Below, one piece after another: positions 30,418 through 49,614 of a stretch of DNA of 64,000 bases. Below the pieces are notes generated by a model, which was not told the DNA's origin, made no database searches, and worked only from the letters and a program-made list of their open reading frames with translations. The stretch lies in IMG/VR virus record IMGVR_UViG_3300030328_002748, positions 1 through 64,000 of that record; one strand, 5' to 3'. The stretch is from a virus (Duplodnaviria > Caudoviricetes). A program made the translations under genes and the position numbers. Position 1 is the first letter of the stretch, and the number at the start of each line of letters is the position of its first letter.

Positions 30418-33400
30418 ATGCCTTTAAGTAGACTAGAGAATTTCCTAAAGAATGTTGAAGGTAACATTTTATATGTAAACCCGACAGATCTGGACGCAAC
30501 TGACAGTATTGAAAATCAAGGTAATTCACTTACCCGACCATTCAAATCGATTCAAAGAGCGTTATTAGAAGCTGCTAGGTTTTCATATCAGATAGGACAA
30601 AATAACGATAAGTTTAATAGAACAACGATATTACTATATCCTGGCGTTCATGAAGTTGATAACAGGCCTGGTTATAACGTAATTAACTCCTCTGGAGCAG
30701 CTCTTTATAGAGATAGGAACGGTGTAATTAAAGCACTTGAACAATTAACTGATGAGAGTAATTATAATATAAATGATCCCACTAACGAACTTTATAAGTA
30801 TAACTCAACTGAGGGTGGTGTTATTATCCCTCGTGGTACTTCTATTGTTGGTTTAGATTTACGTAAAACAAATATAAGACCTAAGTTTGTTCCCGATCCT
30901 ACAAACGACGGTGTTCTTAGATCAGCTATATTCCGTGTAACTGGTGGATGTTATTTCTGGCAATTCACTATATTTGATGGAGATCCTAATAGTTCTGTTT
31001 ATAGAGATTATACAACAAATAGATATACTCCTAGATTTTCACACCATAAACTAACTGTATTTGAATATGCAGATGGTGTAAACGGTGTTGGTATTGGTAC
31101 TTCTACCAGTTCAACTGACCTTCAGATGTATTATCATAAGGTTCAGAAAGCCTATGGTGATAGTTCTGGTCGTGCGATTGGTGACTTCCCATCTACTTCT
31201 GACATGCAACCTAAGTTGCCTGAATATGAGATGGTTGGCCCTGTTGCGGCAAGTAATATTGGTATTACCAGTATGAGGGCTGGTGCTGGATCCCTATCTA
31301 ATACTTCAACCACAGTTACAGTAGATTGTAAGACAGCTCATAGCCTTGTTGTAGATAGTTCTGTTCGTATATCAGGTGTTAATACATATCCAAACATTTA
31401 TAATGGTAATTTCGTTGTAACAGGTATATCTTCTGATCGGATATTTACATATCGAACCAGTTCCCCACCTCTTGATGGTCTACCAGCAATGGATGGTGAT
31501 GAACAAGTTATTGCTGATACCGATACTATTACAGGTACTTCTCCATATATCTTCAACTGTTCTCTACGTTCAGTTTATGGTATGTGTGGTATGCACGCTG
31601 ATGGTAGCAAATCGACTGGATTTAAGTCGATGGTTGTTGCTCAGTACACTGGTGTAGGTCTGCAAAAAGATAATGATGCTTTCTTATTATACAATAGTAG
31701 TACGTCCCAATATGATACTAATGCCACAGTTTCCGATAGTGAAAAACCATTATATCTGAATAGTGATGCCATTTATAGGCCTTCTTATGAGAACTATCAT
31801 GTTAAATGTTCTAATAAGGCGGTTATTCAGATTGTATCTGTGTTTGCTATTGGTTATGCCCAACAATTCTTGGCTGAATCTGGTGGAGACCAATCAATAA
31901 CAAACTCTAACTCTAACTTTGGTTCAAAGGCATTAAAAGCTTCTGGTTTCCAAGATCAGGCATTTGTTAGAGATGATAAAGGATATGTTACTCATATTAT
32001 TCCACCACAGAGACTTGAGAAGGCTAATAAATCTGTAGAATGGGGTGCTATTAATGTTGGATTAACTACAGCTCCTGTTGGTGTTGGTACTACAGCTAAG
32101 ATATTCTTAGATGGATTTACTGATCCAGATATTCCACCCGCAGTTATTATTGAAGGATTTAGAATTGGTGCAAAGAGAACCTTTGATCCTCAAAACTTAT
32201 GCACTAATCCAGACCTTCTAAAAGTTAATGTTGCTGGTGTTGGTACATATTCTGCACCCATTACGATGATTAATTCGGATGGTAGTGAAGGCCCGACAGC
32301 TTTAAAAGAATATGTTGTAGGATTTGTTGGTGCTGCTAACAGTATTACAAGTAGTACATTAACTCTTAGACAAGATCATCAACTATTTGCAGGTGAAAGT
32401 ATTAGGGTTATAGCTGATGATGGTGCTTTACCAGATGGAGTTGATTCAGGAAAGATATATTATGCTGTAACTAATGATTCTCAGAATGAAACTCTAAATG
32501 CAAATCAGATTAAACTTGCTAAGACTGAGAATGAGGCTATACTAGGTGGTTCTGGTAACTTTATTGTCATTAGTAATGATAAAGGTGGTAGAATACGAAT
32601 TAATTCTAGGGTAACTGATAAATTACCAGGCGATTTTGCTCATCCAGTTCAATATGATACTACCAATAAGAACTGGTATGTACGTTGTTCCATTGATCCA
32701 GCTATTAATACAGTTTGGAGTGGTATTACAACTAACCAAGATGCTCTTGGGCCTAGAACTAATAAGACATTCTTTGAAAGAAGAGAGGATACAAGATCTT
32801 TAGGTAATAGGATCTATAAGTTACGTTATGTTATTCCTAAAGAGGAACAGGATGCTAGACCACCTATTCCTGGCTATGTTGTCCAAGAATCTAGTACTAC
32901 TGGTGTAAGTACTGCAACTGATTTCACTGATAATATTCCTAACGCTACTGTTCTAAGGAATGTACGTATTATAAACACCGTTAATAGGGATTCAAATAGT
33001 GGTATTACTACAATTTGTACTGAGAAACCTCATGATTTGATGGTTGGTGATAGAGTACTGTTTAAAAATGTAAGAAGTACTGCAAATACAGTTGGTGCTG
33101 CTAATACTGGATATAATACTATTAGAAATGTTGTTGGTGTTACTAGTTCTAAGGGATTTGAGGTTTCTTATGGATATGCGCCAGGAAACTTTATTACTAA
33201 CGTTTCTACTAGAAATTCAAGTCTACCTACATTCTCTAAACAACAAGCAAAAGGAACCTTTGTTGTTTATCGTGTAGAGACTCTTAAAGAACAACAGTAT
33301 AACAAACAAGATGGTGTTTATCATCTAATATGTGTTGATAGTAGTATTCGTCCAACTGTTAACGAATTTAATAATAGGAAGTATACTCAAGCTATTGAGA

Positions 33401-36400
33401 ATTTATATCCACAATTTGATGGTGATAACTTTGTAATGGATGCCTCTGCTGCATCCAGTTATGCTATTAATGATCCAGTTGGTAAGGTTGTAACTAACAG
33501 TTTACAGTATAGTATCACTAGAGAATTTGCTAACAGATATATTAGATCATTTGGCCCAGGCATTGCGGTCACATATGCTGCTGGTTCTACTGCTGGTGTT
33601 AGTACCATCTATACAGATCGTGAACATAATCTGAATCAGATAACTGCTGTAAGTATTGGTAATAGTGGTGTTAATTATGGTGCTGGTATTTCAACCACTC
33701 TTTATAACGCAACTCTATCATACGTTGGAGTAAGTACTGGTGAAGGTGCTACTGCAAATATAACCATTGATGCTCTTGGTGGTATTACTGCTATCTCAAT
33801 TGTTGATGGTGGATCTGCATACGGTGTTGGACATACTCTTGAAGTTGTTGGTGTTCAGACTGCTGGAAGTCATACTCGTGGATGGGTTAATGTTACTAAG
33901 ATTGCTAATAATATAGGTGATGCAATTGAAATAGTTGGTGTTGGTACTTCACTTGGTCGTTATACCAGTGGATATTGTGGAATCCATACTATTGTATCTC
34001 TAAAACCAAAAGAGGTTACTTATAATAACGGGTTCAATCCAGGCGTTTATGATGTAAACACTGTTGGAATGGCTTCAGGCTTCATGTTATATGCAGGCTC
34101 TGTACCTCCAGTATCTACTATTTCATACTCTAGTGCTGCAACTGGAATTGCAACAGTTACTACTTCTGGGCCTCATGGATTAAATGTTAACAACCCATTT
34201 AAGATAGTGGGTGTTGCTCAGACAATTTATAATACAGAATCTATAGTTAATGAGAGAATAAGTACAACTCAGTTTAACTTCAAGTTTACTGATAAGGCTA
34301 TTCCAGCAACTTATACTGCTGGTGGTAGTGTTATACCAATTAACTATGGCCCTCGTGGTGGTAAGACTGAATCTGGTAATGAAAGGATTGCTCAGAGACT
34401 TGTTCCTTTCAGAACTGGTATTCAAACTTCAATGAGTGCCGCCTCAATTAACTCAACAACTACTACTCTTACTTTGGGTGATAGTTCTGGTTTCTATAAA
34501 GGTGATTACGTTCAGATTGATGGTGAGGTTATTCGTATCTCCTCAGATTTCTCTTCTAATCAGGCAACAGTAATAAGAGGTCAACTTGGTTCTCGTTCTG
34601 CTGCACATGATGCTAGTTCTTTAGTTAAGAAGATTCGTATTATTGCTTCTGAGAAGAGAAGACACTCAATTCTACGTGCTTCTGGTCATACATTTGAATA
34701 TGTTGGATATGGGCCAGGTAACTACTCAACTGGTTTACCACAGAAACAAGATAGGATTCTATCAAAAGAAGAACAGTTCCTTTCTCAGTCACAAAACCCC
34801 GATGGTGGTGCCGTAGTTTATACTGGTGTTAATGATGCTGGTGACTTCTACATTGGTAACAAAGTTATTAACTCTAAGGATGGTACTGAGTCTACATTCA
34901 ATATTCCAATTCCAACTGTAACTGGTGCTGATGAGGATGCTGCAGGAGCTGCTACAAGATTAGATGCTATCTTTGACAGTGTAACTGTCAGGGAAGGATT
35001 ATCCGTTGATGGAGATAATAATACAACAGTTAAGTTAAATGCTCCTACCACAATTACTGAGAAATTAACAACAACATCTGCTGATGGTGCTGAATTTGTT
35101 AAGATAACAATTAATGGTGGTTTACCAGAGAATAGAACATTTACTTATTCTCCAACCAAACCAACAGGTACAGGAACTCTTGGAGATTTAACCTTTAATT
35201 CTAGTCCAAACTTTGGCGAATATCTTGGATGGACATATACCAACCAAGGATGGAAGAGATTTGGTCTTATTTCTACTGAGGATGATTCAACAAAACTAAG
35301 TCTTGGTACTGTTGGTGTTGGTTCTACCAGTGCTAATCGTATTGGTAATCAAAATGGTATTGATGTAAGAGGTACGATTGTTGCTGATGCCTTTGTTTGT
35401 GCTGGAATTTGTACTTTCTCTGGTTCAACAACATTCGCTTCTATTACCTTTAGTGAATTAACTGTTGGTGTTGCTACTGTTACTGGTAGATTGGATATTA
35501 ATGGTGACTTTGATTGTGGAATTGCATCAGTTACTTCACTGAAATTAGCCAATAGTGATAAGATTTTGATGGGAGATAGTGGTTTCCTTGAGATATATCA
35601 TGACGGCAGTGATGCTTACTTCAAGAATACTGGTGGTACTGGTGGTCGTACTTATATTCAAGGCCCATCCAGTAGTGGTCAAGAGATGCGTCTACAGGCC
35701 AAGGCTGGAGAGGATGGTATCGTCATAAATGATGGTGGTTCTATTACAATCGGTCATGCTGGTAGTACCAAGATCGAGACAAGTGCAACAGGTATTACTG
35801 TAACTGGTACAATTAATGGTTCTATTGAGTACTCTAATGGTGTACTTACAGATACAAATAGTGCTAATACTGATTATCAGGTAGGTTTTGTTACTGCTGC
35901 TTCTGGTACTTACAATAGACTCTTTATTGATTCTCAATCTTCGGCATTTACCTATAATCCAAGTTCAAATACATTGAGTGCTGGAACATTTAATGGATCT
36001 GGTGCAAGTTTAACTAATATTCCAAATAGTGCAACGACAGCTACAGATAGCAACAACGGTAACACTATTGTTGGTAGAGATGCTTCTGGTAACTTCTCTG
36101 CTGGTACTATTACCGCAACATTGAGTGGTAATGCATCTTCTGCTAGTTTGGTTGATGTTAATGCTAATAATACTACCAATGAAACTGTTTATCCAGTATT
36201 TGTAGATTCAACTGGTAGTGCTGTTCAGTTAGAAAGAGATACAGGATTGACTTATAATCCAAGTACTCAGATTCTAACTTGTACTACGGTTAGTGCTGGA
36301 TTGAATGGTATTGCAAGTGATGCTGATCAAATTAGAGTAAGAAATGCCAGCAACTCTCCTAATAGTGATTGTCATATTACCTTCAGAAAGAATGATAATA

Positions 36401-36762
36401 CTGATTCATATGATGATCTATGGACGGATGATTATCTGGTTTATAATCCAAGTGGAAACGTTTTTGCTATTAACTCAGATGAAAAACTGAAAGATAATAT
36501 TGAGGTCATTCCTAATGCTCTTGATAAGGTAAAACAGATCCGAGGAGTTACATTTAATTGGAAGAGAGACGGAGTTAAATCTACTGGTGTTATTGCTCAG
36601 GATGTTGAGAAGGCATTCCCTGTTCTGGTTAGTGAAAGAGAAAAAAGTGGAGACAAATCAGTTGCATATCAGAACATGGTTGGTCTTTTAGTTGAGGCTA
36701 TTAAAGAACAACAAATTCAAATTGAAGATCTTAAGGCCAAGGTGGAAGACTTGTCTAAATAG
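30418..36762 (+). CDS. Large virion/tail fibre protein (2114 aa) with C-terminal S74 intramolecular chaperone
   Basis: MPLSRLENFLKN start typical of cyanophage structural proteins; [40 protein letters not shown]; CTAAATA at 30373. Confidence 0.85.
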   Translation: MPLSRLENFLKNVEGNILYVNPTDLDATDSIENQGNSLTRPFKSIQRALLEAARFSYQIGQNNDKFNRTTILLYPGVHEVDNRPGYNVINSSGAALYRDRNGVIKALEQLTDESNYNINDPTNELYKYNSTEGGVIIPRGTSIVGLDLRKTNIRPKFVPDPTNDGVLRSAIFRVTGGCYFWQFTIFDGDPNSSVYRDYTTNRYTPRFSHHKLTVFEYADGVNGVGIGTSTSSTDLQMYYHKVQKAYGDSSGRAIGDFPSTSDMQPKLPEYEMVGPVAASNIGITSMRAGAGSLSNTSTTVTVDCKTAHSLVVDSSVRISGVNTYPNIYNGNFVVTGISSDRIFTYRTSSPPLDGLPAMDGDEQVIADTDTITGTSPYIFNCSLRSVYGMCGMHADGSKSTGFKSMVVAQYTGVGLQKDNDAFLLYNSSTSQYDTNATVSDSEKPLYLNSDAIYRPSYENYHVKCSNKAVIQIVSVFAIGYAQQFLAESGGDQSITNSNSNFGSKALKASGFQDQAFVRDDKGYVTHIIPPQRLEKANKSVEWGAINVGLTTAPVGVGTTAKIFLDGFTDPDIPPAVIIEGFRIGAKRTFDPQNLCTNPDLLKVNVAGVGTYSAPITMINSDGSEGPTALKEYVVGFVGAANSITSSTLTLRQDHQLFAGESIRVIADDGALPDGVDSGKIYYAVTNDSQNETLNANQIKLAKTENEAILGGSGNFIVISNDKGGRIRINSRVTDKLPGDFAHPVQYDTTNKNWYVRCSIDPAINTVWSGITTNQDALGPRTNKTFFERREDTRSLGNRIYKLRYVIPKEEQDARPPIPGYVVQESSTTGVSTATDFTDNIPNATVLRNVRIINTVNRDSNSGITTICTEKPHDLMVGDRVLFKNVRSTANTVGAANTGYNTIRNVVGVTSSKGFEVSYGYAPGNFITNVSTRNSSLPTFSKQQAKGTFVVYRVETLKEQQYNKQDGVYHLICVDSSIRPTVNEFNNRKYTQAIENLYPQFDGDNFVMDASAASSYAINDPVGKVVTNSLQYSITREFANRYIRSFGPGIAVTYAAGSTAGVSTIYTDREHNLNQITAVSIGNSGVNYGAGISTTLYNATLSYVGVSTGEGATANITIDALGGITAISIVDGGSAYGVGHTLEVVGVQTAGSHTRGWVNVTKIANNIGDAIEIVGVGTSLGRYTSGYCGIHTIVSLKPKEVTYNNGFNPGVYDVNTVGMASGFMLYAGSVPPVSTISYSSAATGIATVTTSGPHGLNVNNPFKIVGVAQTIYNTESIVNERISTTQFNFKFTDKAIPATYTAGGSVIPINYGPRGGKTESGNERIAQRLVPFRTGIQTSMSAASINSTTTTLTLGDSSGFYKGDYVQIDGEVIRISSDFSSNQATVIRGQLGSRSAAHDASSLVKKIRIIASEKRRHSILRASGHTFEYVGYGPGNYSTGLPQKQDRILSKEEQFLSQSQNPDGGAVVYTGVNDAGDFYIGNKVINSKDGTESTFNIPIPTVTGADEDAAGAATRLDAIFDSVTVREGLSVDGDNNTTVKLNAPTTITEKLTTTSADGAEFVKITINGGLPENRTFTYSPTKPTGTGTLGDLTFNSSPNFGEYLGWTYTNQGWKRFGLISTEDDSTKLSLGTVGVGSTSANRIGNQNGIDVRGTIVADAFVCAGICTFSGSTTFASITFSELTVGVATVTGRLDINGDFDCGIASVTSLKLANSDKILMGDSGFLEIYHDGSDAYFKNTGGTGGRTYIQGPSSSGQEMRLQAKAGEDGIVINDGGSITIGHAGSTKIETSATGITVTGTINGSIEYSNGVLTDTNSANTDYQVGFVTAASGTYNRLFIDSQSSAFTYNPSSNTLSAGTFNGSGASLTNIPNSATTATDSNNGNTIVGRDASGNFSAGTITATLSGNASSASLVDVNANNTTNETVYPVFVDSTGSAVQLERDTGLTYNPSTQILTCTTVSAGLNGIASDADQIRVRNASNSPNSDCHITFRKNDNTDSYDDLWTDDYLVYNPSGNVFAINSDEKLKDNIEVIPNALDKVKQIRGVTFNWKRDGVKSTGVIAQDVEKAFPVLVSEREKSGDKSVAYQNMVGLLVEAIKEQQIQIEDLKAKVEDLSK

Positions 36763-36814: not shown

Positions 36815-39800
36815 ATGGCATCAAATATTCGTTTTAAAAGATCCTCTGTTACTGGAAAATCTCCATCAGCAGCACAATTACCAATAGGTGAGATAGCAAT
36901 GAACACCAAGGATGGTGTTCTGTGGATGCAAGAAGAAGGTGCTAGGATTTTAAATATTCGGGCTGGTTCCGCTCTAACGGCTGGTAGATTTATATACGTG
37001 TCTCCGCACGGTGACGATACTAATAACGACGGTAGTGATAGATTAAAGGCAAAGAAAACAGTTTCAGGTGCTGTAGCAATCAGTACCTCTGGTGATACAA
37101 TTGAAGTAGCATCAGGTACATATGTAGAATCAAACCCAATAGTTGTTCCTCCTGGCGTTGCATTGCAAGGAGAGGATTTACGATCAACCGTTCTTGTTCC
37201 GCAAACGCAGAATAAGGACTTTTTTCATGTCAACAATGGGGTTCACTTTACGAACTTTAGTTTTGTAGGATCTGCAAGTACTGGTGCAGTTATTTCATTT
37301 GATCCAAATAGAGTAGGTGTTGTAACTCAGTCACCATATGTTCGTAACTGTACTAATTTCATTCCTAATAGTATAGGATTGAGAATTGATGGTAATTTGA
37401 GAAGTGGTAATAATGGTGTTAACGGCTCTATGGTTGTTGACTCATTTACACAATACAACTTGAATGGTATAGGTGTTTCGATTACGAATAAGGCCTATGC
37501 TCAGTTAGTTTCTATATTCACAATTAACTCTGGAACCAGTATTTTCTGTGAATCTGGTGGACAGTGTGATATTACTAACTCTAACTCATCCTTTGGTGAA
37601 TATGGTCTTGTTGCTGACAATGTTAGTTTACTTCAATACACAGGTATTACCTCAACTGCCTCTGGTATTGCTAGTGACCGTCTTCAGATTCAATTCCCAG
37701 TTAAGAATGTTCAGATTACTAACTTTGAATATGATAATGTAACTGGTTACTCTACAGTAACTACAGAAGAGGATCATAATCTTAAAGTTGGTTATGGTGC
37801 TAGTCTACAAGGTATTGGATTCACATGTGCTGCTGGTTATGGCCAGACACATGCAGTTAGTGGTTTCATTTATAATGAAGCTACTGGTATTTCAACTATA
37901 ACAACAGCTACCAATCACGGAGTAATTGGTGGTGATCATGTTAAATTATCTGGAATTGCATTTACTTGTTCTGGTTATGCTGGTGTAAGTACACATATAT
38001 TCCCAGATGGTACAAACGGATATCAATTTAAAGTTGACTCTATATTGAGTAATACTCAATTTACAGTTAATGTTGGAACTTCTACGATTGCTCATACTTA
38101 TTTGGAGAATGGTATTGTTAGAACTGGTATAACCACTGACATTTACCCAAATCCAATTGGTGAGCCTGGAAAATCAGGTAATGTATATGATGTCATAGAC
38201 ATCCCTGGCGGTAATTACACTCACAAGTTTGTTTCCGCTGATGCAGGTGCAGTAACAATTAAAACTGGAGCTGCTGCAGGTGCTGCTGTAACTGTTACTA
38301 ATGCAACATATATTCCTGCTACTGGAGTATTGACATTAGACTTTGTAGCTGCTCATGGAATGTCAACTGCTGATCAGATTACTATATCTGAGGAATCAAT
38401 ATCATTTACATGTGCCAAAGATAATTACAAACATCCACAAGCTTATCCACGGCCAGGATTTGCACATACATTTGTAAGTGGCGTTACTAATGCTATTACG
38501 AAGAGTATTGGTGGAACAATTACTGCGGAAGCTGGTACTGTTTATGACGGTGCAGCTGGTATTATGACAGTGACTTCTGCTGGTCATGGTTTATCAAATG
38601 GTAACACTGTTACCCTTGCAAATGATGCTGTTAAATTCACTTGTTCCAAGGATGTACATGCAACTCAACATGATTATCCAAGAAACGGGATTGATCCTAT
38701 TGCTGGAGTAGCAACAGTTGTTTCTAATTCACAGACTAATACATTTGAGATTTTTGTTGGTAAGTCTGGAATAGCTGATCCTATTTGTGGGGTCGGAACT
38801 ACTGTTAATGTAACAAGTACAACTCAGTTAACCGTTAATTGTGGTGCTACACTACTTGATGCTAGAAAGTTTAATATCTATTCTGGTATTAGTACTGTTC
38901 CACATACATTTGTTCAAGCTGGAATAAGAACGGTTTCGGGATTTGTTCACGATCATCTTACTGGTTTAACTACTATTACAACCAGTCAACCACATCATTT
39001 GGCCGCTAAAAATTATGTAAGACTTGCTGGTATTGCTTTAACATGTACTGCTGGTATTAAAACATATCCAGACGGTAATTCTAGATTTGGTAGTGTCTTT
39101 GAAGTAACTGGTATTACTACTAATACCTTTACTCTTGATGTAGGTATCTCAACTCTGGCCCACACATATGTGAGTGGTGGTACAGTAAGAAGAGCCGCAG
39201 CTTCAAAACTTTATGCTAACCGTCCTTATGATGGTCAAGTAGTTTATCTTGATACATTATATAAACAGTTAGATAAAATCGATGTAACATCGCCTGGTAG
39301 TGGATATGCTTCACAGCCAACTATTACTATTAGTGCCCCAGAAGGGGATAATGGTACAACTGCTACTGCTGAGGCCGTTCTTGAAAATGGAGCTATTAAG
39401 GAGATTAATGTAACCAATAATGGTTCACAATACGTTAATAATCCTTCTATAACACTTACTGGTGGAAGTCCTTCGGTTTCTGCTGGTACAACTACTGGTA
39501 TGCGTCCTCTGTATTATACAGTACAAGAGGCAACACAACCTGACAAATACACTGGTATATCAACCGTTGTATTTGACCAAGTTCTTAATAATGCTATTGG
39601 TATAGGATCTACAGCGTTCTTCTACCAAACAAGTCTCATCTTGGCCTCATCACACTCATTTGAGTGGATTGGTTCAGGTGGAGATATGGCTGGTTCAAGA
39701 CCTAGACTTGGTGGTGTTGGTATTCAGTCCGCTGAAATTGTTAATCGAGATGGTGGAATAGTAGTTTACACCTCTACAGACCAATCTGGTAACTTCAGAA

Positions 39801-39910
39801 TTGGTAATGATGTTGCGATTAACCAAGTAACAGGTACTATCTCAGGTAGAGCCTTCAATCAAAGTCTGTTAAATACAGTAACACCTCTAATCATAGCACT
39901 AGAAGATTAA
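36815..39910 (+). CDS. Tail fibre protein with internal repeats
   Basis: IRFKRSS..GEIAMN N-terminus, beta-helix region, repeated Y..TG..T.TT...H....G..V.L.GI.FTC units; CTAAATA at 36755. Confidence 0.8.
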   Translation: MASNIRFKRSSVTGKSPSAAQLPIGEIAMNTKDGVLWMQEEGARILNIRAGSALTAGRFIYVSPHGDDTNNDGSDRLKAKKTVSGAVAISTSGDTIEVASGTYVESNPIVVPPGVALQGEDLRSTVLVPQTQNKDFFHVNNGVHFTNFSFVGSASTGAVISFDPNRVGVVTQSPYVRNCTNFIPNSIGLRIDGNLRSGNNGVNGSMVVDSFTQYNLNGIGVSITNKAYAQLVSIFTINSGTSIFCESGGQCDITNSNSSFGEYGLVADNVSLLQYTGITSTASGIASDRLQIQFPVKNVQITNFEYDNVTGYSTVTTEEDHNLKVGYGASLQGIGFTCAAGYGQTHAVSGFIYNEATGISTITTATNHGVIGGDHVKLSGIAFTCSGYAGVSTHIFPDGTNGYQFKVDSILSNTQFTVNVGTSTIAHTYLENGIVRTGITTDIYPNPIGEPGKSGNVYDVIDIPGGNYTHKFVSADAGAVTIKTGAAAGAAVTVTNATYIPATGVLTLDFVAAHGMSTADQITISEESISFTCAKDNYKHPQAYPRPGFAHTFVSGVTNAITKSIGGTITAEAGTVYDGAAGIMTVTSAGHGLSNGNTVTLANDAVKFTCSKDVHATQHDYPRNGIDPIAGVATVVSNSQTNTFEIFVGKSGIADPICGVGTTVNVTSTTQLTVNCGATLLDARKFNIYSGISTVPHTFVQAGIRTVSGFVHDHLTGLTTITTSQPHHLAAKNYVRLAGIALTCTAGIKTYPDGNSRFGSVFEVTGITTNTFTLDVGISTLAHTYVSGGTVRRAAASKLYANRPYDGQVVYLDTLYKQLDKIDVTSPGSGYASQPTITISAPEGDNGTTATAEAVLENGAIKEINVTNNGSQYVNNPSITLTGGSPSVSAGTTTGMRPLYYTVQEATQPDKYTGISTVVFDQVLNNAIGIGSTAFFYQTSLILASSHSFEWIGSGGDMAGSRPRLGGVGIQSAEIVNRDGGIVVYTSTDQSGNFRIGNDVAINQVTGTISGRAFNQSLLNTVTPLIIALED

Positions 39911-40271: not shown

Positions 40272-43200
40272 ATGCCTAAGTACATTTCAGGTAGAGTACC
40301 AGTTAATGCTCCTGGCGACGCCGGACTCTCTACAGACAGACACACTTTTCTAGGATTAGAGGATGCAGAACCTAATCTAGGATTGGCTAGTGCAAATCAA
40401 TCTGTTATCATAAGTGATACTACAGGCACAAGAGGATTTTCAGATACACCTACTGTAACTGGTGCTAATGTAACAGGAATAATTACTGCAACTACAGGAA
40501 TAATTACTACAGTCAATGCGGAAACGCTTGATGCTGGAGCGAATCTATATGCCCTTGCTGGTGTTGTAACCACCCTAACTGTTACAGATACAGTAGCTAC
40601 GGCCTCTACTGCCACTAATCTTACTGTATCAGGAATCACATCTGTTAAGGATATTGTAGGTACATCTGGTACTATCACTAACTTAACATCCACTGACACT
40701 AATGTTAGTGGTGCTTTAACATCTGTTGATGCCACATTTACTCGACTAACTCCTGAAGATACAGTCGGTACTGCTGCAACATTTACAGATCTTAACGCTA
40801 CAAGATTTACTCCCACGGATACTGTAGGTACTGCTGCAACCTTTACTAATCTTTCACTTACCAATCTTGATGGTGGAGATGGTACTCTTAATATTCGTGC
40901 GAATATACTTGATACTCAGACTTTATATGGTGTAACTGGTGTTGTTACTACCTTAACTGTTGCTAACCGTGTTGTTGTTAGTGGTGGTGCAACAGTTTCA
41001 GGGGCAATGACCGTCACTGGAAATACTCAATTCTGGGGTGGTATAAGAGATAAAGATGGACAAATAGGTGATGCAGGCCAAGTTCTTCAATCAACAGGAA
41101 GTCAGGTTAACTGGGTAAACACTCCTGCTGGTGGTATTACAATTAAGGATGAAGGTGCTACTGTAGGTACTGCTGGTAGTGTTGTTATTGTCAACTTTGT
41201 TGGAACTGGAGTTACTGCTTCTGCTAGTGGTTTAGGTGCTACTATTACAGTAGATCAACTCGATAAGGCTAATGGTTTAGATAGTCAGGTTCAATATAAT
41301 AATAGTGGTACATTAGGTGGTGCAACTGGATTTGTCTTTACAGATTCCAATAACTATGTTGGTATCGGAAGTACAAACCCACAAAGACAGGTAACTATCG
41401 GTGGAGATGGTACTGTTCATGGTAAGTGGTACACACAAAGAACATATACAACTACCAATATTCCACTTGATGCTTTAGAATATGTTCCTAAGTCATATGT
41501 TGATGCTGTTCAGGCTGGTATCGTTGTTAAGGCTGCCGTATCTATGGCATCCACAGAGGCCATCAGTGCTTACACATACAATAATGGATTATCTGGTGTT
41601 GGTGCAAAGATTTGGAAGAATACTAATGGTTTAGGTGCTATTGATGGTGTTGACTTTACAGTTCAAGCTCGTGTTCTAATTAAAGATCAAGGTGCTTCTG
41701 GTGTAGGTAATACATTTGAGAATGGATTCTATGAGGTTACTAGGACTGGATCTGGATCAACTTCATGGGAGTTGCAAAGAACCAATGATATGGACGAACC
41801 AGACGAAATGGTTTCTGGTGCGTTCGCTTTCGTTCTTGAAGGTGTTAGAAACAGTGGTAATGGTTTCGTTCAGTTAACGAAAGAACCAGTTGCGATTGGT
41901 ACTACTGCATTAGAATATACCCAGTTTACGGCGCCTGGACAGGTAGAGGCTGGTGATGGTTTACAGAAGACTGCCAATACTATTGATGTTGTTAGTGCTG
42001 ATACTAATGCAATCTATATTACTCCTGATAATATTAATTTAAAGGCTATTAACCCGTCGCAAAGTTATGTTTCAACGGGATCGACGCAATTTGTACAGGC
42101 TATTAGTATCGATTCATATGGTCGGGTTACGGGTGTTGTAACGACGAATGAATATACTAAGGCCACCCAAGTAACTCATGGTGTCGTTAGGATACCAGCA
42201 GAGGCAAGTAGTGGATTAACGATCAGTAGTGGTGAACTAGGTCTAACGAATTGGCCAACATTCACGAACTTAAAAGTAACGGGTATTACAACTAATGTAG
42301 TAACCTCAGCTACTTCTAATACTACATCATCTCTTACTGTTACTGGTGTTACTACTCATACTGGGGCTTCTAGATGGAGTGATAGTACTAAACTTCTTAT
42401 CGGTTCAGATAACGACCTTCAAGTATATCATACAGGATCAATAGGATATATTGATAATAATACAGGTAATTTATTTGTTAGAAATAATGTTGATAATGAT
42501 GATGGTGGTAATATAGTAATTCAGGCTAAGTCTGGTGAAAATTCTATTGTCGCTAATGATGATGGTTCAGTTGATTTACATTATGATGGTGGTGATGCCA
42601 AACTCCAGACAATTGGATATGGTATTACTGTAAATGGAACTGCCTGGCTTGATGCAACTCAAGTTGGTGGTGCAGCCACGATTGGTGCTACTTTAGAACT
42701 ACAGTCATTCCTGAAAGACTACTATAATCAAGTTGGTGCTGCAACATCAGTTCTTATTGGTGATGCTAATGGTACTAAGTGGGAGTCTATTGCGACTGCT
42801 GCATTACAAGGGCCTAAAGGACAGAAAGGAGAAGTAGGTGATAAAGGACAGAAGGGAGAAAAAGGAGAGAAGGGACAGAAAGGTGAGAAAGGTGAAAAGG
42901 GACAGAAGGGAGAAAAGGGTGAAAAAGGTCAGAAGGGTGTTGATGGTGTAGATGGCCCAACAGGGCCCACCGGCCCAACTGGGCCTACAGGCCCAACCGG
43001 CCCAACTGGCCCTAAAGGTCAAAAGGGTGAACAAGGTGCAACTGGCCCGACTGGCCCAACAGGCCCCACTGGCCCTAAAGGACAGAAAGGTGCTCAGGGT
43101 GCAACTGGCCCAACAGGGCCAACTGGCCCAACCGGCCCTCAAGGTTCCAAAGGACAGAAGGGTGCTCAAGGATCTACTGGCCCAACAGGGCCAACCGGCC

Positions 43201-44114
43201 CTACCGGCCCAACTGGCCCAACAGGTCAGAAAGGTCAGAAGGGTGCAACTGGTAGTACTGGCCCAACAGGCCCTACAGGCCCTGCCGGCCCCAACAATCC
43301 ATCATCTGTTCAGATAACAGGTAGTGGTAATGATGTTCTTAACTTTACTGCAAACTCATCTAATGACAACAGAGGTATGTCGTTCAACTCTAGAACGGCT
43401 GTTACCGCTGACTATAATGATGGTTGGTTGAGAGTTAATAATGAGAATGAGTTTGGTAATGGTGTTTATTCACCAGAGAAATTCCGTGGTGATTCAGGTA
43501 TGTATGTATCTGGTTCCAGATATATTGATGATAACTTAGGTGACTACGGAACAATTCGTTGTGGTGGTAATGGTGCTGGTAACTGGGAAGGATTCTCTAT
43601 TGATGGTCGTGAAGTATTCATGCACGATGGTGGTAACGCTACTGGTTTATACAATGATGTGAACAATGAGTGGATGGTTTATTGTCAGAATAACTCATAT
43701 GTTCAGTTGAGACATAATAACACTACTAGATTAGAGACATCTAACAATGGTGTTAGTATTAATAACATCATGACTTGTAACTCTGACAAACGATTGAAGG
43801 AGAACGTCACTAATCTTGACGGATCTTTGGATAAAGTTTTGAAGATGAGAGGTGTTTCCTTCAACTGGATAAATGAGAAGGATGATAGAGATGATGGACA
43901 ACCGACTATAGGTTTCCTTGCACAAGAGATGCAAGAAGTTGAACCTAGTTTGGTTTATAACTCTAATACAGCTGCAGATGGAACTCAATATCTAGGAGTT
44001 GCATATCAAAACTTATCTGCACACTTGGTTGAGGCCATTAAGGAACAGAATGATGTCATAAATAACTTGAGAGCACGAATCGAAGTCTTGGAGAAACACA
44101 ATGGCATTGAGTAA
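40272..44114 (+). CDS. Tail fibre with collagen triple-helix segment and C-terminal S74 chaperone
   Basis: 54 Gly-X-Y triplets; [38 protein letters not shown]. Confidence 0.9.
42810..43295 (+). repeat. Collagen-coding repeat, (Gly-X-Y)54
   Basis: [18 protein letters not shown] ... [12 protein letters not shown] with no interruption; 9-nt periodicity. Confidence 0.97.
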
Positions 44115-44475
44115 GGATTATGAAATTCCAAATACAGGTGTAACTGTACCTAATGCCTACTTCGTTATTAGGGAAGTTAGGTTGGAAAAGAGATTAGCTG
44201 ATTACCCATACCCAGGCGAAACATATACAGATTCAGAAAGGGTTTCTCTGGGGGAACCACTTGTTAACTTTAAAGCTGGACGTATTGCCTGGATCACACT
44301 TTCGGTGTATGCTAGCCAAACAGCCAGAAATAATGGATCGAAACATGTTGGAGTAGTTGGTAAAGACAACTCTAAAGATTATCGATGTTTTATAGATGGT
44401 GATAGTGATATTTCTGCACAGATTTATACCTATTTAAAAACTACAACATATTTTAGTGACGCTGTAGACGTTTAA
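44101..44475 (+). CDS. Fibre-associated small protein
   Basis: MAL...GVTVPNAY...QIYTYLKT...DAVDV pattern; overlaps the fibre stop. Confidence 0.65.
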
Positions 44476-44479
44476 TTAA

Positions 44480-45169
44480 TTGGACAATTTTATTCGTGAA
44501 TACTTCATCAGGGATCCTGAGATCTGTGATGGAGTAATTGATGCACTTGAAAAGTTGAAGGCAGCTGGTCATGGTAGGCCTGGCGTGTCTTATATGCCTG
44601 ATGCTCCAGATGATTTTGATTTCAAGTCAGTTAAAGATAGTTGGGATCTAGTACCTCCTGATTTTGCTAGGATGTATCCTAATGGCCCTAAGGAATTAAG
44701 ACTTGATGAGATTGCAGATGAGATGAATAATGAGTTATTTCCAAGATATTATAAGGAGATAGAGTTACATTTTAGAGGAGAATTATTCTCTATAAGACCA
44801 CCTCAGTTTCAGATGTATGAACCTGGCGGTGGTTATAAAGTATGGCATTGTGATGCCCAAGGTGTTATGATACATAGAATGTTTGTTTATATTCTATATC
44901 TTAATGATGTACCTGATGGAGGTACAGAATTCAAACATCAAAATGTAAGAGTTACAGCTGAGAAAGGGAAGGTACTCATGTTCCCTGCTAACTTTTGTTA
45001 TATTCATAGGAGTGAAGTATCCCATACCAGTAAGAAGTATATTATGACTGGATGGATGGATACAGATCTTGTTGAGATGTTGACAGAAGAAAGTAGAAAA
45101 AAACCCGAAGATAAGTATGATGCTTACACACAACTAGCAAAACAACAATATAATGAGAATAAAAAATGA
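44480..45169 (+). CDS. 2OG-Fe(II) oxygenase (prolyl-hydroxylase-like fold)
   Basis: QMYEPGGGYKVWHCD, YLNDVPDGGTEF, KGKVLMFP..YIHR, KYIMTGW. Confidence 0.9.
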   Translation: MDNFIREYFIRDPEICDGVIDALEKLKAAGHGRPGVSYMPDAPDDFDFKSVKDSWDLVPPDFARMYPNGPKELRLDEIADEMNNELFPRYYKEIELHFRGELFSIRPPQFQMYEPGGGYKVWHCDAQGVMIHRMFVYILYLNDVPDGGTEFKHQNVRVTAEKGKVLMFPANFCYIHRSEVSHTSKKYIMTGWMDTDLVEMLTEESRKKPEDKYDAYTQLAKQQYNENKK

Positions 45170-45897
45170 TTTCATTGGTAACTGGTGGGTTTGATCCCGT
45201 ACATTCTGGACATATAGCTCTCTTTAAAGGTGCTAGGTCTGTATCTGATAGATTAATAGTTGGTGTTAATTCTGATCAATGGCTTATTAGAAAGAAAGGT
45301 AAATATTTTATGCCTATTGAGGAGAGAATCAATATCCTCAAAAATCTTTCAATGGTAGATGAAGTAATAACATTTAATGATGAAGATGATACAGCATGTG
45401 ATGCAATAGAAAGATTGTTACCTAGTAATGATGATATTGTATTCTGTAATGGTGGTGATAGAGGTAATAATAATACTCCTGAATTATTCAAGTATGTGGA
45501 TAAGGTTACTTTTGCATGGGGTGTTGGTGGTGTTGATAAAAAGAATAGTAGTAGTTGGTTATTAGCCGATTGGAGTGCTCCTAAGACAAAAAGAGCTTGG
45601 GGTCATTATAAGGTATTGTATGAAGGAAAAGGATTTAAAGTCAAAGAATTAGTAATTAATCCTAAGAGTTCATTGTCAATGCAAAGACATAAGAATCGTA
45701 GTGAAACATGGAATATTGTTACTGGTAATGCACATGTTATAGTAGGTGATGATATGTATAAATTATCTACTGAGAAGGGTGTTTATATACCACCTAACAC
45801 ATGGCATAAAGGTATTAATGAATCAGATGAAGAGGCACATATAATAGAAGTATGGAGAGGAGATATTTTAACTGAGGAGGATATTGAAAGACAATGA
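45166..45897 (+). CDS. HIGH-family nucleotidyltransferase fused to a ManC-type cupin (sugar isomerase-like)
   Basis: TGGFDPVHSGH, GVNSD, NGGDR, KKNSSS; then RAWGHY..LSMQRH..RSETW..IEV..G..EEDIER. Confidence 0.85.
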   Translation: MISLVTGGFDPVHSGHIALFKGARSVSDRLIVGVNSDQWLIRKKGKYFMPIEERINILKNLSMVDEVITFNDEDDTACDAIERLLPSNDDIVFCNGGDRGNNNTPELFKYVDKVTFAWGVGGVDKKNSSSWLLADWSAPKTKRAWGHYKVLYEGKGFKVKELVINPKSSLSMQRHKNRSETWNIVTGNAHVIVGDDMYKLSTEKGVYIPPNTWHKGINESDEEAHIIEVWRGDILTEEDIERQ

Positions 45898-46445
45898 ATG
45901 GTGAATGGGCTATATGGAAAAGGGCATTTACAAAAGAGGAATGTCATGATATAATAGAACGAGGCCAAAAACTTGAAGTTGAAGAGGCCGATTTGGGAGC
46001 TCATGGTGATAATAAGAATAAAGAATATCGTAGGAGTGAAGTCAGATGGATGAATGAGGATCTATTTGAGGATATTTTTGATAAGATGTGGAAAATGACT
46101 ATTAAGGCTAATACCCAATGGTTTGGTTTTCATATTGATGAATTAAGATATATGCAATTCACTGAGTACCATGAAAGTTATAAGGGAGAATATAAGAAAC
46201 ACCATGATGTTTTTTGGACTGAACCAAAACATAGAAAGTTATCTGTGGTATTACAACTAACTGACCCAGATACATATGAAGGGGGAGATCTCCATCTTAC
46301 AGTTCAAGGAGAAAGACCGGCCTTTTATAAAGATCAAGGAACTGTGATCTGGTTTCCATCATGGACTCCACACTGGGTAACTCCAGTTACAAAAGGTATT
46401 CGTAATAGTGTTGTTTGTTGGTTTGAGGGGCCACATTGGAAATGA
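45894..46445 (+). CDS. 2OG-Fe(II) oxygenase
   Basis: QFTEY..YKKHHD, RKLSVVLQL, YEGGDL, FPSWTPHWVTPVTKGIRNSVVCW. Confidence 0.92.
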   Translation: MNGEWAIWKRAFTKEECHDIIERGQKLEVEEADLGAHGDNKNKEYRRSEVRWMNEDLFEDIFDKMWKMTIKANTQWFGFHIDELRYMQFTEYHESYKGEYKKHHDVFWTEPKHRKLSVVLQLTDPDTYEGGDLHLTVQGERPAFYKDQGTVIWFPSWTPHWVTPVTKGIRNSVVCWFEGPHWK

Positions 46446-48322
46446 AAAAATTCTGTATTTCACTACCAGAAAGAGAAGATCGTAAGAGATGGTTCTATGA
46501 CCAGAACTCTGATAAGATAGACTATGAAATATTTAAGGCCATTGATGGTCGTAAGTTTGATTATAGTTTTCTATATGCTTCGGGTTTTGATACCTATAAA
46601 AATTGGCGTGACCCAATTAATCATACACATATCACAGGTGGAGAGATAGGATGTTTTCTTTCTCACTATTCTTTATGGATGAAATGTGTTGAACTCGATG
46701 AACCCATAATGATATTTGAGGATGATGCTAATATTACAGATGAATGGGATGAATCAGAAATTAATAAACTCATAGAAGAATATAATTTTATCTATCTTGG
46801 TTGGCTTGAGATGGGTAAATCTAAATCAGTCAAAAAGAAAAAGAAATTAGTTGTTCCTGAATATCCATACTGGACACTTTCATACGTTATAACTCCTGAA
46901 GCTGCAAAAATTTTAACTGAAGGCAATCCACAGAAAGAAATTATACCTGTAGATGAATATCTACCTGCACAATTACATAGACTCAATGTAGTTGGATATA
47001 AAGAGAATGTTGTTATCCCTGCTGGTAGAGAGATATTTGGTACAGATGTAGATCCTCATAATAGATATGATTATTTCCTAGACTTTAGAACACATGCTGT
47101 AACTATTGGTGATGATGATTCAAAATGTTGGAGGTTACATGAATCTGCACATGGTAAGAACTTTAGAGTAAAGAATCTATGTATTGGTCAAGATATTAAA
47201 TGGACAGGATCAGATATGAGTGGGCCTGGAGGAGGTCAAAAGGTTAATATTTTACGGGACTACATTTATTGTCTACCAGACCATGATGTAGTATTATTTG
47301 CTGATGGATTTGATACGTTTGCAATATCAGATTTAGAAGAGATAACACGTAGATTTCTTGAGTTTAAATGTAAGGTATTATTTGCAGCTGAAGAACATCT
47401 ATGGCCCGATAAAGACTTAGAGTTTCCTGAATGTGAAACTAAGTATAGGTATTTGAATAGTGGATTGTTTATTGGTAGAGTTGATGAACTCAAAAGAATA
47501 ATGAATGCTGGGATAAAGAATGAGGAAGACGATCAACTTTATTATCAGAAGGCATATTTGAATGGTGATTCAACTGCTCCTGAGTCTGAAAGATTAGATA
47601 TAAAATTGGATCATGAATGTTATGTCTTTCAGTGTCATGAAGAGAATTTAAAGATAGAAAGAGGAACATTATTTAATAATGAGACTAGATGTTATCCTTG
47701 TTTCTATCATGGTAATGGGGATGGGTCTGCAAAGAAACATTTCCAGAGTGTATTTGATAGATTCTTTGGTGGTGGAATAGTATATACCCAAACAGACCAA
47801 TATGAATTACTTGGGCCTGACATGATTCTTGTTGATTATATGTCACCAAATATGTGTCATGAAATGATTCGTAGAGCTGATGAATATGGTCAATGGGGTA
47901 GTCTTTCATATGATAAATTCCCTGCTCAAGAGATTAGATTAAAAAAAATAAGTCTATGGGAAGAGATGGCAGAACATTGGCAAGATATATTAAATCCAAT
48001 CATTGAACGATTCTGGCATCCTATGGAGATGTATGGTATGAGAGATGCTTTTGTTATGAGATATGCTATGAATACACAAACAAATTTGGCCTTACATAAT
48101 GATGCCTCTTTGGTGACTGGATCTGTTAAACTAAATGATAACTATCAAGGTGCAGATCTAGAGTTCCCTAGACAGAAATTCAGTAATAAGGATATACCTG
48201 TTGGTAAGTGTATATTATTTCCAGGCCAAGTTTCACATGGACATACTTGCACCGAGTTAAAATCAGGTGTTAAATATAGCTTAACCATGTGGTCTAAACG
48301 ATTCCATAAAGATGAGGTGTAA
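46436..48322 (+). CDS. Three-domain collagen-modifying enzyme: GT25 (COLGALT-like), PLOD-type glycosyltransferase, lysyl hydroxylase
   Basis: GEIGCFLSH, FEDD, YWTLSY, PVDEYLP; GGGQKV, FADGFD, LFAAE..WP, YLNSG.FIG, EDDQLYY, HGNG; YGQW, FVMRY, HND..SHGH. Confidence 0.88.
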   Translation: MEMKKFCISLPEREDRKRWFYDQNSDKIDYEIFKAIDGRKFDYSFLYASGFDTYKNWRDPINHTHITGGEIGCFLSHYSLWMKCVELDEPIMIFEDDANITDEWDESEINKLIEEYNFIYLGWLEMGKSKSVKKKKKLVVPEYPYWTLSYVITPEAAKILTEGNPQKEIIPVDEYLPAQLHRLNVVGYKENVVIPAGREIFGTDVDPHNRYDYFLDFRTHAVTIGDDDSKCWRLHESAHGKNFRVKNLCIGQDIKWTGSDMSGPGGGQKVNILRDYIYCLPDHDVVLFADGFDTFAISDLEEITRRFLEFKCKVLFAAEEHLWPDKDLEFPECETKYRYLNSGLFIGRVDELKRIMNAGIKNEEDDQLYYQKAYLNGDSTAPESERLDIKLDHECYVFQCHEENLKIERGTLFNNETRCYPCFYHGNGDGSAKKHFQSVFDRFFGGGIVYTQTDQYELLGPDMILVDYMSPNMCHEMIRRADEYGQWGSLSYDKFPAQEIRLKKISLWEEMAEHWQDILNPIIERFWHPMEMYGMRDAFVMRYAMNTQTNLALHNDASLVTGSVKLNDNYQGADLEFPRQKFSNKDIPVGKCILFPGQVSHGHTCTELKSGVKYSLTMWSKRFHKDEV

Positions 48323-49149: not shown

Positions 49150-49614
49150 ATGCCAACTTATGACGCCGACGGTTTTGAAGTAGAAGAGTTTTGGATATTA
49201 ACTAAACTTGATACAGGTCTAGTTTTTAGCCAAATGAGTTATGAACCTGATTTAACAGGTGATCCTGATGCTGCTACCTATGGTAAGTATCAGATTAGTC
49301 AAGCAGATTTTGAGAATCTTCAGCAAGATTGGTTATATAAATGGGATGATAGTGCAAAAGCTGTAAGGGTAAAGAATGATTCTGAATTAACAGAACAGAA
49401 GAAAGAAGCATTTAAGGCAAAGAGAAATAATTATCTTGCTCAGTCAGATTTTTATCTTCTTGATGATGCACCTGTTACAGCTGCAAAGAAAGCAGAATGG
49501 CAAACATATCGTGCAGCACTGAGAGATTTACCAGCTAATACTACAGATGCTCAGATTTTAGCAGATACTATTAACTGGCCTACACTGCCTGGATCAATTA
49601 ATGCTGCAACTTAA
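49150..49614 (+). CDS. Tail fibre assembly chaperone
   Basis: RNNYLAQSD...D.P...EWQTYRAALRDLP...WPTLP. Confidence 0.85.
   Translation: MPTYDADGFEVEEFWILTKLDTGLVFSQMSYEPDLTGDPDAATYGKYQISQADFENLQQDWLYKWDDSAKAVRVKNDSELTEQKKEAFKAKRNNYLAQSDFYLLDDAPVTAAKKAEWQTYRAALRDLPANTTDAQILADTINWPTLPGSINAAT

Follow-up and report, generated by a model that had tools for sequence, protein, structure and literature searches.

A compact GT25 - PLOD glucosyltransferase - lysyl hydroxylase protein encoded behind the collagen-like tail fibre of a T4-like cyanomyovirus

What does a gene lying behind a collagen-like tail fibre of a marine phage encode, and on which substrate would its product act? The question is raised by an open reading frame in a stretch of 64,000 nucleotides of viral DNA (positions 1 to 64,000 of the IMG/VR virus record IMGVR_UViG_3300030328_002748), hereafter called the window. 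A preliminary description, made from the letters of the window, had read this frame as one polypeptide fusing COLGALT-like, PLOD glucosyltransferase-like and lysyl hydroxylase domains. To our knowledge, the glycosylation of collagen hydroxylysine is held to be a feature of animals, and the only exception characterised so far is that of giant viruses. The analysis reported here leads us to consider it likely that the product of the gene is a compact enzyme with three functions in the modification of collagen lysines, which would most likely act on the stalk of the tail fibre encoded upstream.

The virus record containing the window is a contig of 116,397 bases, with an estimated completeness of 59%. 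The window has a G+C content of about 35%, carries almost all of its genes on the + strand and matches T4-like Synechococcus and Prochlorococcus myoviruses; its source is a T4-like cyanomyovirus. The frame is open over 46436..48322 (+), as had been described, and gives 628 amino acids from a TTG at 46436 or 626 from an ATG at 46442. Since this ATG shares an ATGA with the TGA stop codon of the preceding gene, has a GAGGGG stretch upstream and yields the length of the database protein P0001 (626 amino acids, identical to the enzyme of the window), it is the likely start, and the TTG given in the preliminary description is a less likely alternative. Residues are numbered below in the 626-residue protein; two must be added for the 628-residue frame used previously. 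The gene and its parts, including the PLOD-type glucosyltransferase (PLOD-GT) and lysyl hydroxylase (LH) domains, are as follows.

46442..48322 (stop codon included), + strand: three-domain enzyme gene, GT25 - PLOD-GT - lysyl hydroxylase (open reading frame, AlphaFold2 model, database protein P0001).
46442..47011, + strand: domain 1 (D1), residues 1-190, GT25/COLGALT1-like inverting hexosyltransferase (Pfam PF01755, COLGALT1 alignment, Foldseek).
47012..47086, + strand: linker between D1 and D2, residues 191-215 (secondary structure of the model; the COLGALT1 alignment stops at residue 188).
47087..47776, + strand: domain 2 (D2), residues 216-445, PLOD-type retaining glucosyltransferase, GGT-like (Pfam PF25342, phmmer, Foldseek).
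47783..48319, + strand: domain 3 (D3), residues 448-626, Fe(II)/2-oxoglutarate lysyl hydroxylase with a double-stranded beta-helix (phmmer, Foldseek).

The three domain assignments were borne out by Pfam profiles, by sequence search of the PDB and by an AlphaFold model compared with Foldseek, and the motifs quoted in the preliminary description were all found in the translation: WRDP...ITGGEIGCFLSHYSLW, FEDD, YWTLSYVI and IIPVDEYLP in D1; GGGQKV, FADGFD, LFAAEEHLWP, YLNSGLFIG and EEDDQLYY in D2; and MCHEMIRRADEYGQW, FVMRY, HND and SHGH in D3. Pfam Glyco_transf_25 (PF01755) matched D1 with E 7.7e-29 and 101.4 bits, for a cut-off of 24, and GT_PLOD (PF25342) matched D2 with E 1.3e-44 and 152.7 bits, for a cut-off of 27; no Pfam match was obtained on the C-terminal third of the enzyme and no NCBIfam family matched it. 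A phmmer search of the PDB recovered human LH3 (PLOD3) with E 1.1e-32 in two stretches, corresponding to residues 232-431 (glucosyltransferase) and 461-616 (hydroxylase), with independent E-values of 8.7e-22 and 1.2e-7, respectively. The same search recovered mimivirus R699 (E 3.3e-31), the catalytic domain of COLGALT1 (4e-25) and the LH domain of mimivirus L230 (E 5.6e-8).

AlphaFold2, given an alignment of 47 relatives, produced a model with a mean predicted local distance difference test (pLDDT) of 93, a predicted TM-score (pTM) of 0.75 and no residue below pLDDT 50. The top PDB match of the whole model in Foldseek was full-length LH3 (E 1.2e-28). Taken separately, D1 matched COLGALT1 (9evk, E 1.3e-17, root mean square deviation (rmsd) 3.0 over 217 columns, 28% identity; 9evj, E 6.0e-18), D2 matched R699 (9dyt, rmsd 2.5 over 237 columns, 32% identity) and the glucosyltransferase domain of LH3 (6wfv, target-normalised TM-score (TMt) 0.83, rmsd 2.3), and the best structural match of D3 was the LH domain of L230 (6ax6, TMt 0.76, rmsd 2.2). 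Between D2 and D3 the model shows just a short loop (443-454), running from helix 428-442 to strand 455-458. With the end of D2 near residue 445 and the start of D3 near residues 448-455, no room is left for the accessory domain of PLOD, which is absent, in agreement with the preliminary description.

Catalytic residues were mapped by counting along the printed alignments, and their conservation was taken from the alignment of 47 relatives. The roles of COLGALT1 residues are those given in PMC12987934 and the roles of LH3 residues those given in PMC6082870. In D1, R11 and R14 correspond to Arg351 and Arg354 of COLGALT1, E93-D94-D95 to its Mn2+-binding EDD motif at 435-437 (kept in 47, 46 and 47 of the 47 relatives), D171-E172 to the catalytic base Asp522 and to Glu523, which anchors the hydroxylysine amino group (PMC12987934; kept in 47/47 and 44/47), and Y143-W144 to the hydroxylysine clamp Tyr494-Trp495 (Tyr in 41 and Trp in 28 relatives). 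In D2, W254 aligns with the UDP-stacking Trp75 of LH3 (46/47), D288 and D291 with its non-canonical DxxD motif, Asp112/Asp115 (both 47/47), F290 with the UDP-stacking Tyr114 (Tyr in 40 of the 47 relatives), W321 with the gating Trp145 (45/47), and D363/D364 with Asp190/Asp191 (47/47 and 46/47). H423, present in all 47 relatives, aligns with LH3 His253, which we take to be a Mn2+ ligand. The iron triad of LH3, His667/Asp669/His719, is found in D3 as H552/D554/H601, invariant in all 213 relatives with a D3 match, and LH3 Tyr656 is kept as Y541. Residues E93, D95, D171, K267, D288, D291, E317, D363, H423, H552, D554 and H601 are invariant in the 47 relatives; these invariant residues map onto COLGALT1 or LH3 positions that are important by mutagenesis or structure (PMC12987934, PMC6082870).

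GT25 is also the Pfam family of bacterial lipooligosaccharide (LOS) beta-1,4-galactosyltransferases (solved example 8xlz/8xc8), which have the GT-A fold and the EDD and (P)xDE motifs in common with D1 but which, unlike the phage enzyme, consist of a single domain, use a sugar acceptor and are devoid of the YW clamp. The type of D1 was judged by bit scores, Foldseek and motifs, the solved bacterial GT25 being the only LOS-type comparator. D1 alone scored 94.8 bits against the COLGALT1 catalytic domain (E 5.9e-26), 36 bits against the bacterial enzyme 8xlz and 22.7 bits against mimivirus R655. Foldseek aligned D1 with the bacterial GT25 enzyme at E 1.4e-9 and rmsd 9.6, and the bacterial GT25 has Trp-Gly at the site of the Tyr-Trp found in COLGALT1 and the phage protein. 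A grouping of D1 with LOS-type enzymes, which the preliminary description had named as speaking against its own proposal, was thus not found, and D2 and D3, for which it had likewise considered a lack of specific similarity to PLOD, specifically matched PLOD3, R699 and L230.

We also examined whether the hydroxylase domain is predicted to self-associate. The homodimer prediction scored 0.72, compared with 0.00 for the best control; in the benchmark, 20 of 30 solved pairs formed by a single chain type and one of 23 single chains attained this score. Three runs shared 100% of their contacts, with pLDDT of at least 89, and the predicted interface takes in residues 594-598, among them V597, the counterpart of LH3 Leu715 in the alignment. 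Since similar dimers of L230 and LH3 have already been solved, the score possibly reflects the memory of the predictor; according to this model, the enzyme would probably be a dimer joined via its hydroxylase domains, resembling the tail-to-tail dimer of PLOD.

The likely substrate of the enzyme, which the preliminary description had not named, is encoded upstream of it, on the same strand.

40272..44114, + strand: tail-fibre gene, 1280 amino acids, likely substrate (Pfam Collagen, E 6.2e-24; PHROG tail-fibre families, phrog_8745 with E 0).
42810..43295, + strand: collagen-like stalk of the fibre, residues 847-1008, 54 uninterrupted Gly-X-Y triplets (scripted count).

The fibre ends in a Peptidase_S74 intramolecular chaperone (residues 1171-1228, Pfam E 1.1e-15) and is the sole open reading frame of the 116,397-base record with a run of at least five triplets. 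The enzyme gene lies 2.3 kb downstream of it, in a tight co-directional cluster. Within the 54 triplets of the stalk, Lys occupies position Y 21 times and position X never, Pro is found 25 times at X and Thr 24 times at Y. The X-Lys-Gly motif, with Lys at Y, is the site of collagen lysyl hydroxylases and of COLGALT1 (PMC9546862, PMC12987934), and is common to the human LH3/COLGALT1 machinery and the phage fibre.

This arrangement recurs in other phages. Among 80 IMG/VR loci carrying the enzyme, a collagen open reading frame was found upstream on the same strand in 31 of the 35 loci with at least 6 kb of upstream sequence, in 9 of 15 with 3-6 kb and in 8 of 30 with less than 3 kb, and the median gap between the collagen frame and the enzyme gene was 1441 nt. 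Three of the four exceptions with a long flank have a collagen frame 13-15 kb away in the same record. Lys was counted 1913 times at Y and not once at X in the collagen frames of loci L001-L082. Runs of at least 10 triplets were present in 47/80 enzyme loci, in 3/80 loci of g32, an unrelated core gene used as control, and in 0/75 loci of stand-alone hydroxylase-like genes; the corresponding figures for loci of at least 12 kb were 36/45, 1/15 and 0/36. Synechococcus phage S-CAM9 has the order fibre, hypothetical protein, oxygenase, oxygenase, enzyme, and in the 45-kb Roseobacter phage CRP-6 the enzyme is preceded by a pair of tail-fibre genes, of which one has 97 triplets, 26 of these with Lys at Y. 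Copies on contigs of metagenome-assembled genomes (MAGs) had a collagen frame upstream in three of five cases, the other two having less than 1.2 kb of flank. The linkage of the enzyme to Gly-X-Lys fibres is therefore recurrent.

From these data we infer that all three activities exist, in which order they act, which sugars they transfer and on what substrate. The Fe(II)/2-oxoglutarate domain D3 would convert Lys at position Y of Gly-X-Lys into 5-hydroxylysine. The GT25 domain would then move a hexose from a UDP-sugar onto the new hydroxyl with inversion, Mn2+ being bound by E93-D94-D95 and D171 acting as the base, and the PLOD-type domain, with Mn2+ on D288/D291/H423, would attach a second hexose. 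Hydroxylation would come first because both transferases need either the hydroxyl or the first sugar; the same order of reactions is established in animals (PMC9546862, PMC12987934). The 54-triplet stalk, as the most likely substrate, would be modified in the infected cell, either ahead of trimerisation or while it proceeds, and the enzyme would probably be at work as a dimer through its hydroxylase domains. That marine tailed phages run the whole animal-type pathway, from Lys to hydroxylysine and on to hexosyl- and dihexosyl-hydroxylysine, with one 626-residue protein in a bacterial cell is a real possibility, which we advance tentatively.

Part of this scheme has a precedent. Mimivirus L230, which joins an N-terminal GLT25D1-like transferase to a C-terminal PLOD-like hydroxylase, hydroxylates and glucosylates viral collagen, its product in the cited work being glucosyl-hydroxylysine only (PMC9614988). 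L230 and the phage enzyme are both viral single chains with GT25 at the N-terminus and LH at the C-terminus, from viruses encoding collagen-like proteins (PMC9614988). The compact phage form differs from the long giant-virus forms in having no accessory region of about 250-350 residues between D2 and D3, the middle region of L230 being deduced from its long relatives in this comparison. Compact forms belong to tailed phages of bacteria and stand next to a tail-fibre gene, whereas the long giant-virus forms of about 880-900 amino acids fall into the other clade.

Human LH3/PLOD3 and COLGALT1 (GLT25D1), solved as complex 8zgc, contain the same three catalytic modules, Mn2+ ligands and iron triad as the phage enzyme. 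They are two proteins in animals and carry extra glycosyltransferase-like domains, the accessory domain of LH3 and the N-terminal domain of COLGALT1, which are absent in the phage. The phage enzyme further differs from them by an identity of about 16-30%, by the replacement of the Arg729 and Cys691 equivalents and by its location in the bacterial cytoplasm, not in the endoplasmic reticulum. Having neither the glycosyltransferase-accessory-LH layout nor the Arg729/Cys691 pocket, and bearing an extra GT25 domain, it is a relative of PLOD and not a canonical PLOD. The donor of COLGALT1 is UDP-galactose only (PMC12987934). Mimivirus R699, the closest solved relative of D2 (32% identity), is a stand-alone glycosyltransferase with an accessory domain, without GT25 or hydroxylase (PMC12279948); it shows glucosyltransferase activity towards glycosylated hydroxylysine (PMC9546862, PMC12279948) and may prefer glucosyl-hydroxylysine (PMC12279948).

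The preliminary description had presented the protein as a fusion of enzymes that are separate in animals. This fits the solved human LH3/ColGalT1 complex 8zgc, but in animals PLOD-GT and LH are already parts of a single chain. Nor is the fusion of a new kind, since a union of GT25 with a lysyl hydroxylase had already been characterised in L230 (PMC9614988). For both reasons the novelty is lower than had been thought; the new elements are the clade of compact phage forms, how abundant it is and the consistency with which it is paired with Gly-X-Lys tail fibres. The nearest publication, a survey of 2010, reported arrays of dioxygenases in cyanophages and predicted in general terms the hydroxylation of bacterial collagen-like proteins (PMC2938197). 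Our literature search, which left most subscription journals outside its reach, brought up no publication describing a lysyl hydroxylase or a collagen glycosyltransferase of a tailed phage.

How large is this family? Of 5707 candidates in a word-indexed protein search, 1256 proteins reached E <= 1e-5, and the best 120 of those 1256 all carried both Pfam domains and were mostly 614-673 amino acids long, three having 942-956. An exhaustive search of representatives at 50% identity gave 4090 proteins with E <= 1e-3, of which 191 had E <= 1e-30. The order D1+D2+D3 was found in 193 of 269 relatives, D1+D2 in 39, D2+D3 in 13 and other arrangements in 24. When forms with fewer than 100 residues between D2 and D3 were defined as compact, the three-domain proteins comprised 157 compact and 35 long forms (about 830-1190 amino acids). 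The long form P0253 aligns with LH3 residues 15-712 as one stretch behind an N-terminal GT25 and thus corresponds to GT25 plus a complete PLOD. Some relatives depart from both layouts: P0030 (942 amino acids) has two GT25 stretches followed by PLOD-GT and oxygenase, P0129 (875 amino acids) carries an N-terminal TylF-like O-methyltransferase, and P0240 (753 amino acids) is permuted, its GT25 standing between PLOD-GT in front and a HalD-like halogenase domain behind.

A FastTree phylogeny was computed on 99 rows of joined D1, D2 and D3 segments, keeping every fourth close relative; it was unrooted and included no named animal sequences. Compact and long forms are separated on it by one state change, across a branch with a support of 100, and on this unrooted tree the change may be either a loss or a gain of the accessory domain. 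An accessory-free layout ancestral to the giant-virus and animal enzymes seems doubtful to us. In the ESM Atlas, a long cluster (92 members) is viral with Nucleocytoviricota as the commonest taxon, and four compact clusters (77, 262, 172 and 52 members) are viral with Uroviricota as the commonest. The BFVD database holds a 610-residue viral homologue (E 1e-81), an 889-residue Megavirus 'procollagen-lysine 5-dioxygenase' aligning along the whole model (E 7e-39) and a 493-residue protein of an uncultured Caudovirales, automatically given the same name, 'procollagen-lysine 5-dioxygenase'. The giant-virus origin of the long forms is suggested by the automatic ESM Atlas taxa and one BFVD match. The compact form of the phages makes up a clade of its own, and an abundant one.

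The enzyme was present on at least 469 IMG/VR contigs. In eleven GenBank phage records the protein is matched without a break over 94% or more of its length, nine of these records being from Synechococcus phages (S-CAM9, S-PRM1, S-8S53/55/56), one from a marine single-cell virus and one from Roseobacter phage CRP-6. The homologues are annotated there as 'hypothetical protein' or '2OG-Fe(II) oxygenase', where 2OG stands for 2-oxoglutarate. In PHROG, the profile phrog_61 (689 positions) matches residues 1-624 with E 9.3e-182 and covers all three domains, so that the phage family has already been clustered in a public resource; it is named '2OG-Fe(II) oxygenase' only and filed under 'moron, auxiliary metabolic gene and host takeover'. 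This annotation gap in phrog_61 and GenBank could be closed.

Prokaryotic genomes, one per species for 185,579 species, were scanned with D3 patterns from a 16-row alignment, a procedure biased towards genes bearing D3 and blind to forms with D1 and D2 only. Of 114 confirmed relatives, 80 were retained: five were full-length, each on a MAG contig (2.5-61 kb), one was an incomplete copy from a single-cell assembly of Prochlorococcus, and 74 were hydroxylase-like genes standing alone, from Acidimicrobiia and further Actinomycetota. These last loci (L097-L170, 74 contigs from Acidimicrobiia/Ilumatobacteraceae and other Actinomycetota, some of them megabases long) encode a protein 34-44% identical to residues ~455-617, and no collagen-like frame was found within 8 kb of it in any of the 74 contigs.

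Several points weigh against a trifunctional enzyme acting on the fibre. In D3, K611 replaces LH3 Arg729 and L573 replaces Cys691, both in the 2OG pocket, and with these exchanges the handling of the cofactor or the specificity may differ. The Lys (Lys613 in the 628-residue numbering) had been correctly placed by the preliminary description at the 2OG-binding Arg of PLOD. It is present in 39 of the 47 aligned relatives, the remaining 8 having Arg; in the wider set, Lys stands at the Arg729 site in 149/157 compact forms and Arg in 31/35 long forms, and the Cys691 site holds Leu in 153/157 compact forms and Cys, Val or Thr in long forms. In prolyl 4-hydroxylases, a Lys ten residues past the second iron-binding His binds 2-oxoglutarate. 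Lys611 is for this reason no argument for a dead enzyme, and by this analogy hydroxylase activity is plausible. In D1, W144 of the hydroxylysine clamp is kept in just 28/47 relatives, Lys470 of the acceptor cleft of COLGALT1 is replaced by Leu (R/K in 26/47 relatives), and the lid loop of COLGALT1 lies beyond the alignable part, which ends at residue 188. We take this loop to be His560 and Tyr561-Glu580, becoming ordered upon UDP binding; the linker at residues 191-215 may hold its equivalent. The glycan is not predictable from the family, as the GT25 domain of L230 adds glucose and not galactose. The linkage counts are not independent, since the loci are related, with 64 distinct enzyme 5' ends among the 80, and the fourth exception with a long flank, in a record that is 71% complete, shows no collagen gene. 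Two short cyanophage contigs of the g32 control set (L243 and L244) carry collagen frames with Lys solely at Y, in 7/49 and 44/79 triplets. The restriction of Lys to Y is therefore not specific for hydroxylation and may simply reflect the electrostatics of the triple helix.

Could the protein do less than the full series of reactions? It might hydroxylate Lys and add a single hexose, as L230 does in yielding glucosyl-hydroxylysine only (PMC9614988), one transferase domain being structural or serving another acceptor, for example Thr at Y of Gly-Pro-Thr, in line with the 24 Thr at Y in the fibre. The uneven conservation of W144 and the loss of Lys470 would suit such partial activity. Two ESM Atlas phage clusters, one with GT25 and oxygenase only and one with PLOD-GT and oxygenase only, indicate that two transferases are not obligatory. 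Yet the full metal-binding and catalytic sets of both transferases are kept in 46-47 of the 47 relatives, which is hard to square with a dead domain, and R699, the closest solved relative of D2, is active on glycosylated hydroxylysine (PMC9546862, PMC12279948), so that we regard partial activity as unlikely. An auxiliary gene directed at the host, remodelling a surface glycan or a host protein with no relation to the fibre, would agree with the name LPS (lipopolysaccharide) biosynthesis given to GT25 by Pfam and several sources, with the category under which phrog_61 is filed and with the many 2OG oxygenases of unknown role in cyanophages (PMC2938197). This is a still weaker candidate in our view: the gene has a tight, recurrent position right after collagen-like fibre genes in phages as unrelated as a myovirus and a 45-kb Roseobacter phage, D1 is far nearer to COLGALT1 than to the solved bacterial GT25 and no bacterial NCBIfam family matches, and full-length copies are rare in the 185,579 prokaryotic species genomes (five among the 80 retained of 114, all on MAG contigs). 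That the three-domain frame is an artefact of assembly or gene calling, joining separate genes, is so improbable as to be negligible; split forms (D1+D2, D2+D3) do occur in databases, although nothing was counted in favour of this explanation, and the same D1+D2+D3 order is found in 193/269 relatives, an unbroken match to 94% or more of the protein is present in 11 phage records of GenBank and the fold model is confident throughout. Taken together, the evidence favours a compact enzyme predicted to hydroxylate and doubly glycosylate collagen lysines.

The other genes of the cluster in which the enzyme is encoded are the following.

44101-44475: open reading frame of 124 amino acids, in the co-directional cluster.
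44480..45169, + strand: 2OG-Fe(II) oxygenase, 229 amino acids (Pfam 2OG-FeII_Oxy_3, E 4.8e-9).
45166..45897, + strand: nucleotidyltransferase-cupin fusion, 243 amino acids (Pfam CTP_transf_like, with MannoseP_isomer C-terminal/Cupin_2).
45894..46445, + strand: small 2OG-Fe(II) oxygenase, 183 amino acids (Pfam 2OG-FeII_Oxy_3, E 2.3e-14; PKHD-type hydroxylase 3dkq, E 2e-5).
49150-49614: tail-fibre assembly protein, in the cluster after the enzyme gene.

The gene of the 183-residue oxygenase (45894-46445) is translationally coupled to the enzyme gene, and its product is a candidate for the second hydroxylase of the cassette, perhaps a prolyl hydroxylase. A homologue was found as a small separate frame on the + strand in 33/80 related loci, located upstream of the enzyme and mostly abutting it among the 12 matches listed. 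It was present in 23 of 29 loci whose collagen triplets have Pro at X in at least 10% of cases, and in one of 18 loci without. On the enzyme tree this link is reduced to 3-4 independent contrasts (sign test p >= 0.5), so that a prolyl hydroxylase for Gly-Pro-Y is a lead only. Homologues of the 229-residue oxygenase were found in 8/80 related loci, and those of the nucleotidyltransferase-cupin protein in 4/80, the latter being lineage-specific.

The two small oxygenases were considered as paralogues of D3, as suggested by phrog_61, and this was rejected: BLASTP gave just E 0.002 and 0.003 over 30-57 residues, and such weak, short matches make them distant members of the superfamily. A PF13640 search of the record pointed to four other places and did not recover the two neighbours matched by Pfam hmmscan, whose result was given preference. 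Between both small oxygenases, the fusion protein combines a cytidylyl/adenylyltransferase-like part, similar to RfaE domain II, with a cupin resembling type II phosphomannose isomerase; the NCBIfam families rfaE_dom_II and GMP_PMI both matched it under their cut-offs. It may act in sugar-nucleotide metabolism, supplying or altering a sugar nucleotide. Two very large structural frames, 30418-36762 (2114 amino acids) and 36815-39910 (1031 amino acids), lie upstream of the collagen fibre and contain no Gly-X-Y runs; the C-terminus of the former is a Peptidase_S74 chaperone.

According to the present analysis, ordinary tailed phages possess all three catalytic modules as one complete and compact set; the enzyme family is abundant in the sea, and a third viral lineage thereby joins the evolutionary history of PLOD and COLGALT. 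If the proposed activities are correct, the enzyme would also be a self-sufficient, bacterially folded, single-gene tool for glycosylated recombinant collagen, a step still missing in bacterial collagen production according to those working with the mimiviral enzymes (PMC9546862). The tail fibres of these phages would then bear hydroxylysine-linked disaccharides, the first outside eukaryotes and giant viruses. For phage biology, the prediction is that the host-recognition apparatus carries a post-translational modification so far unrecognised, which could affect fibre stability, protease resistance or adsorption.

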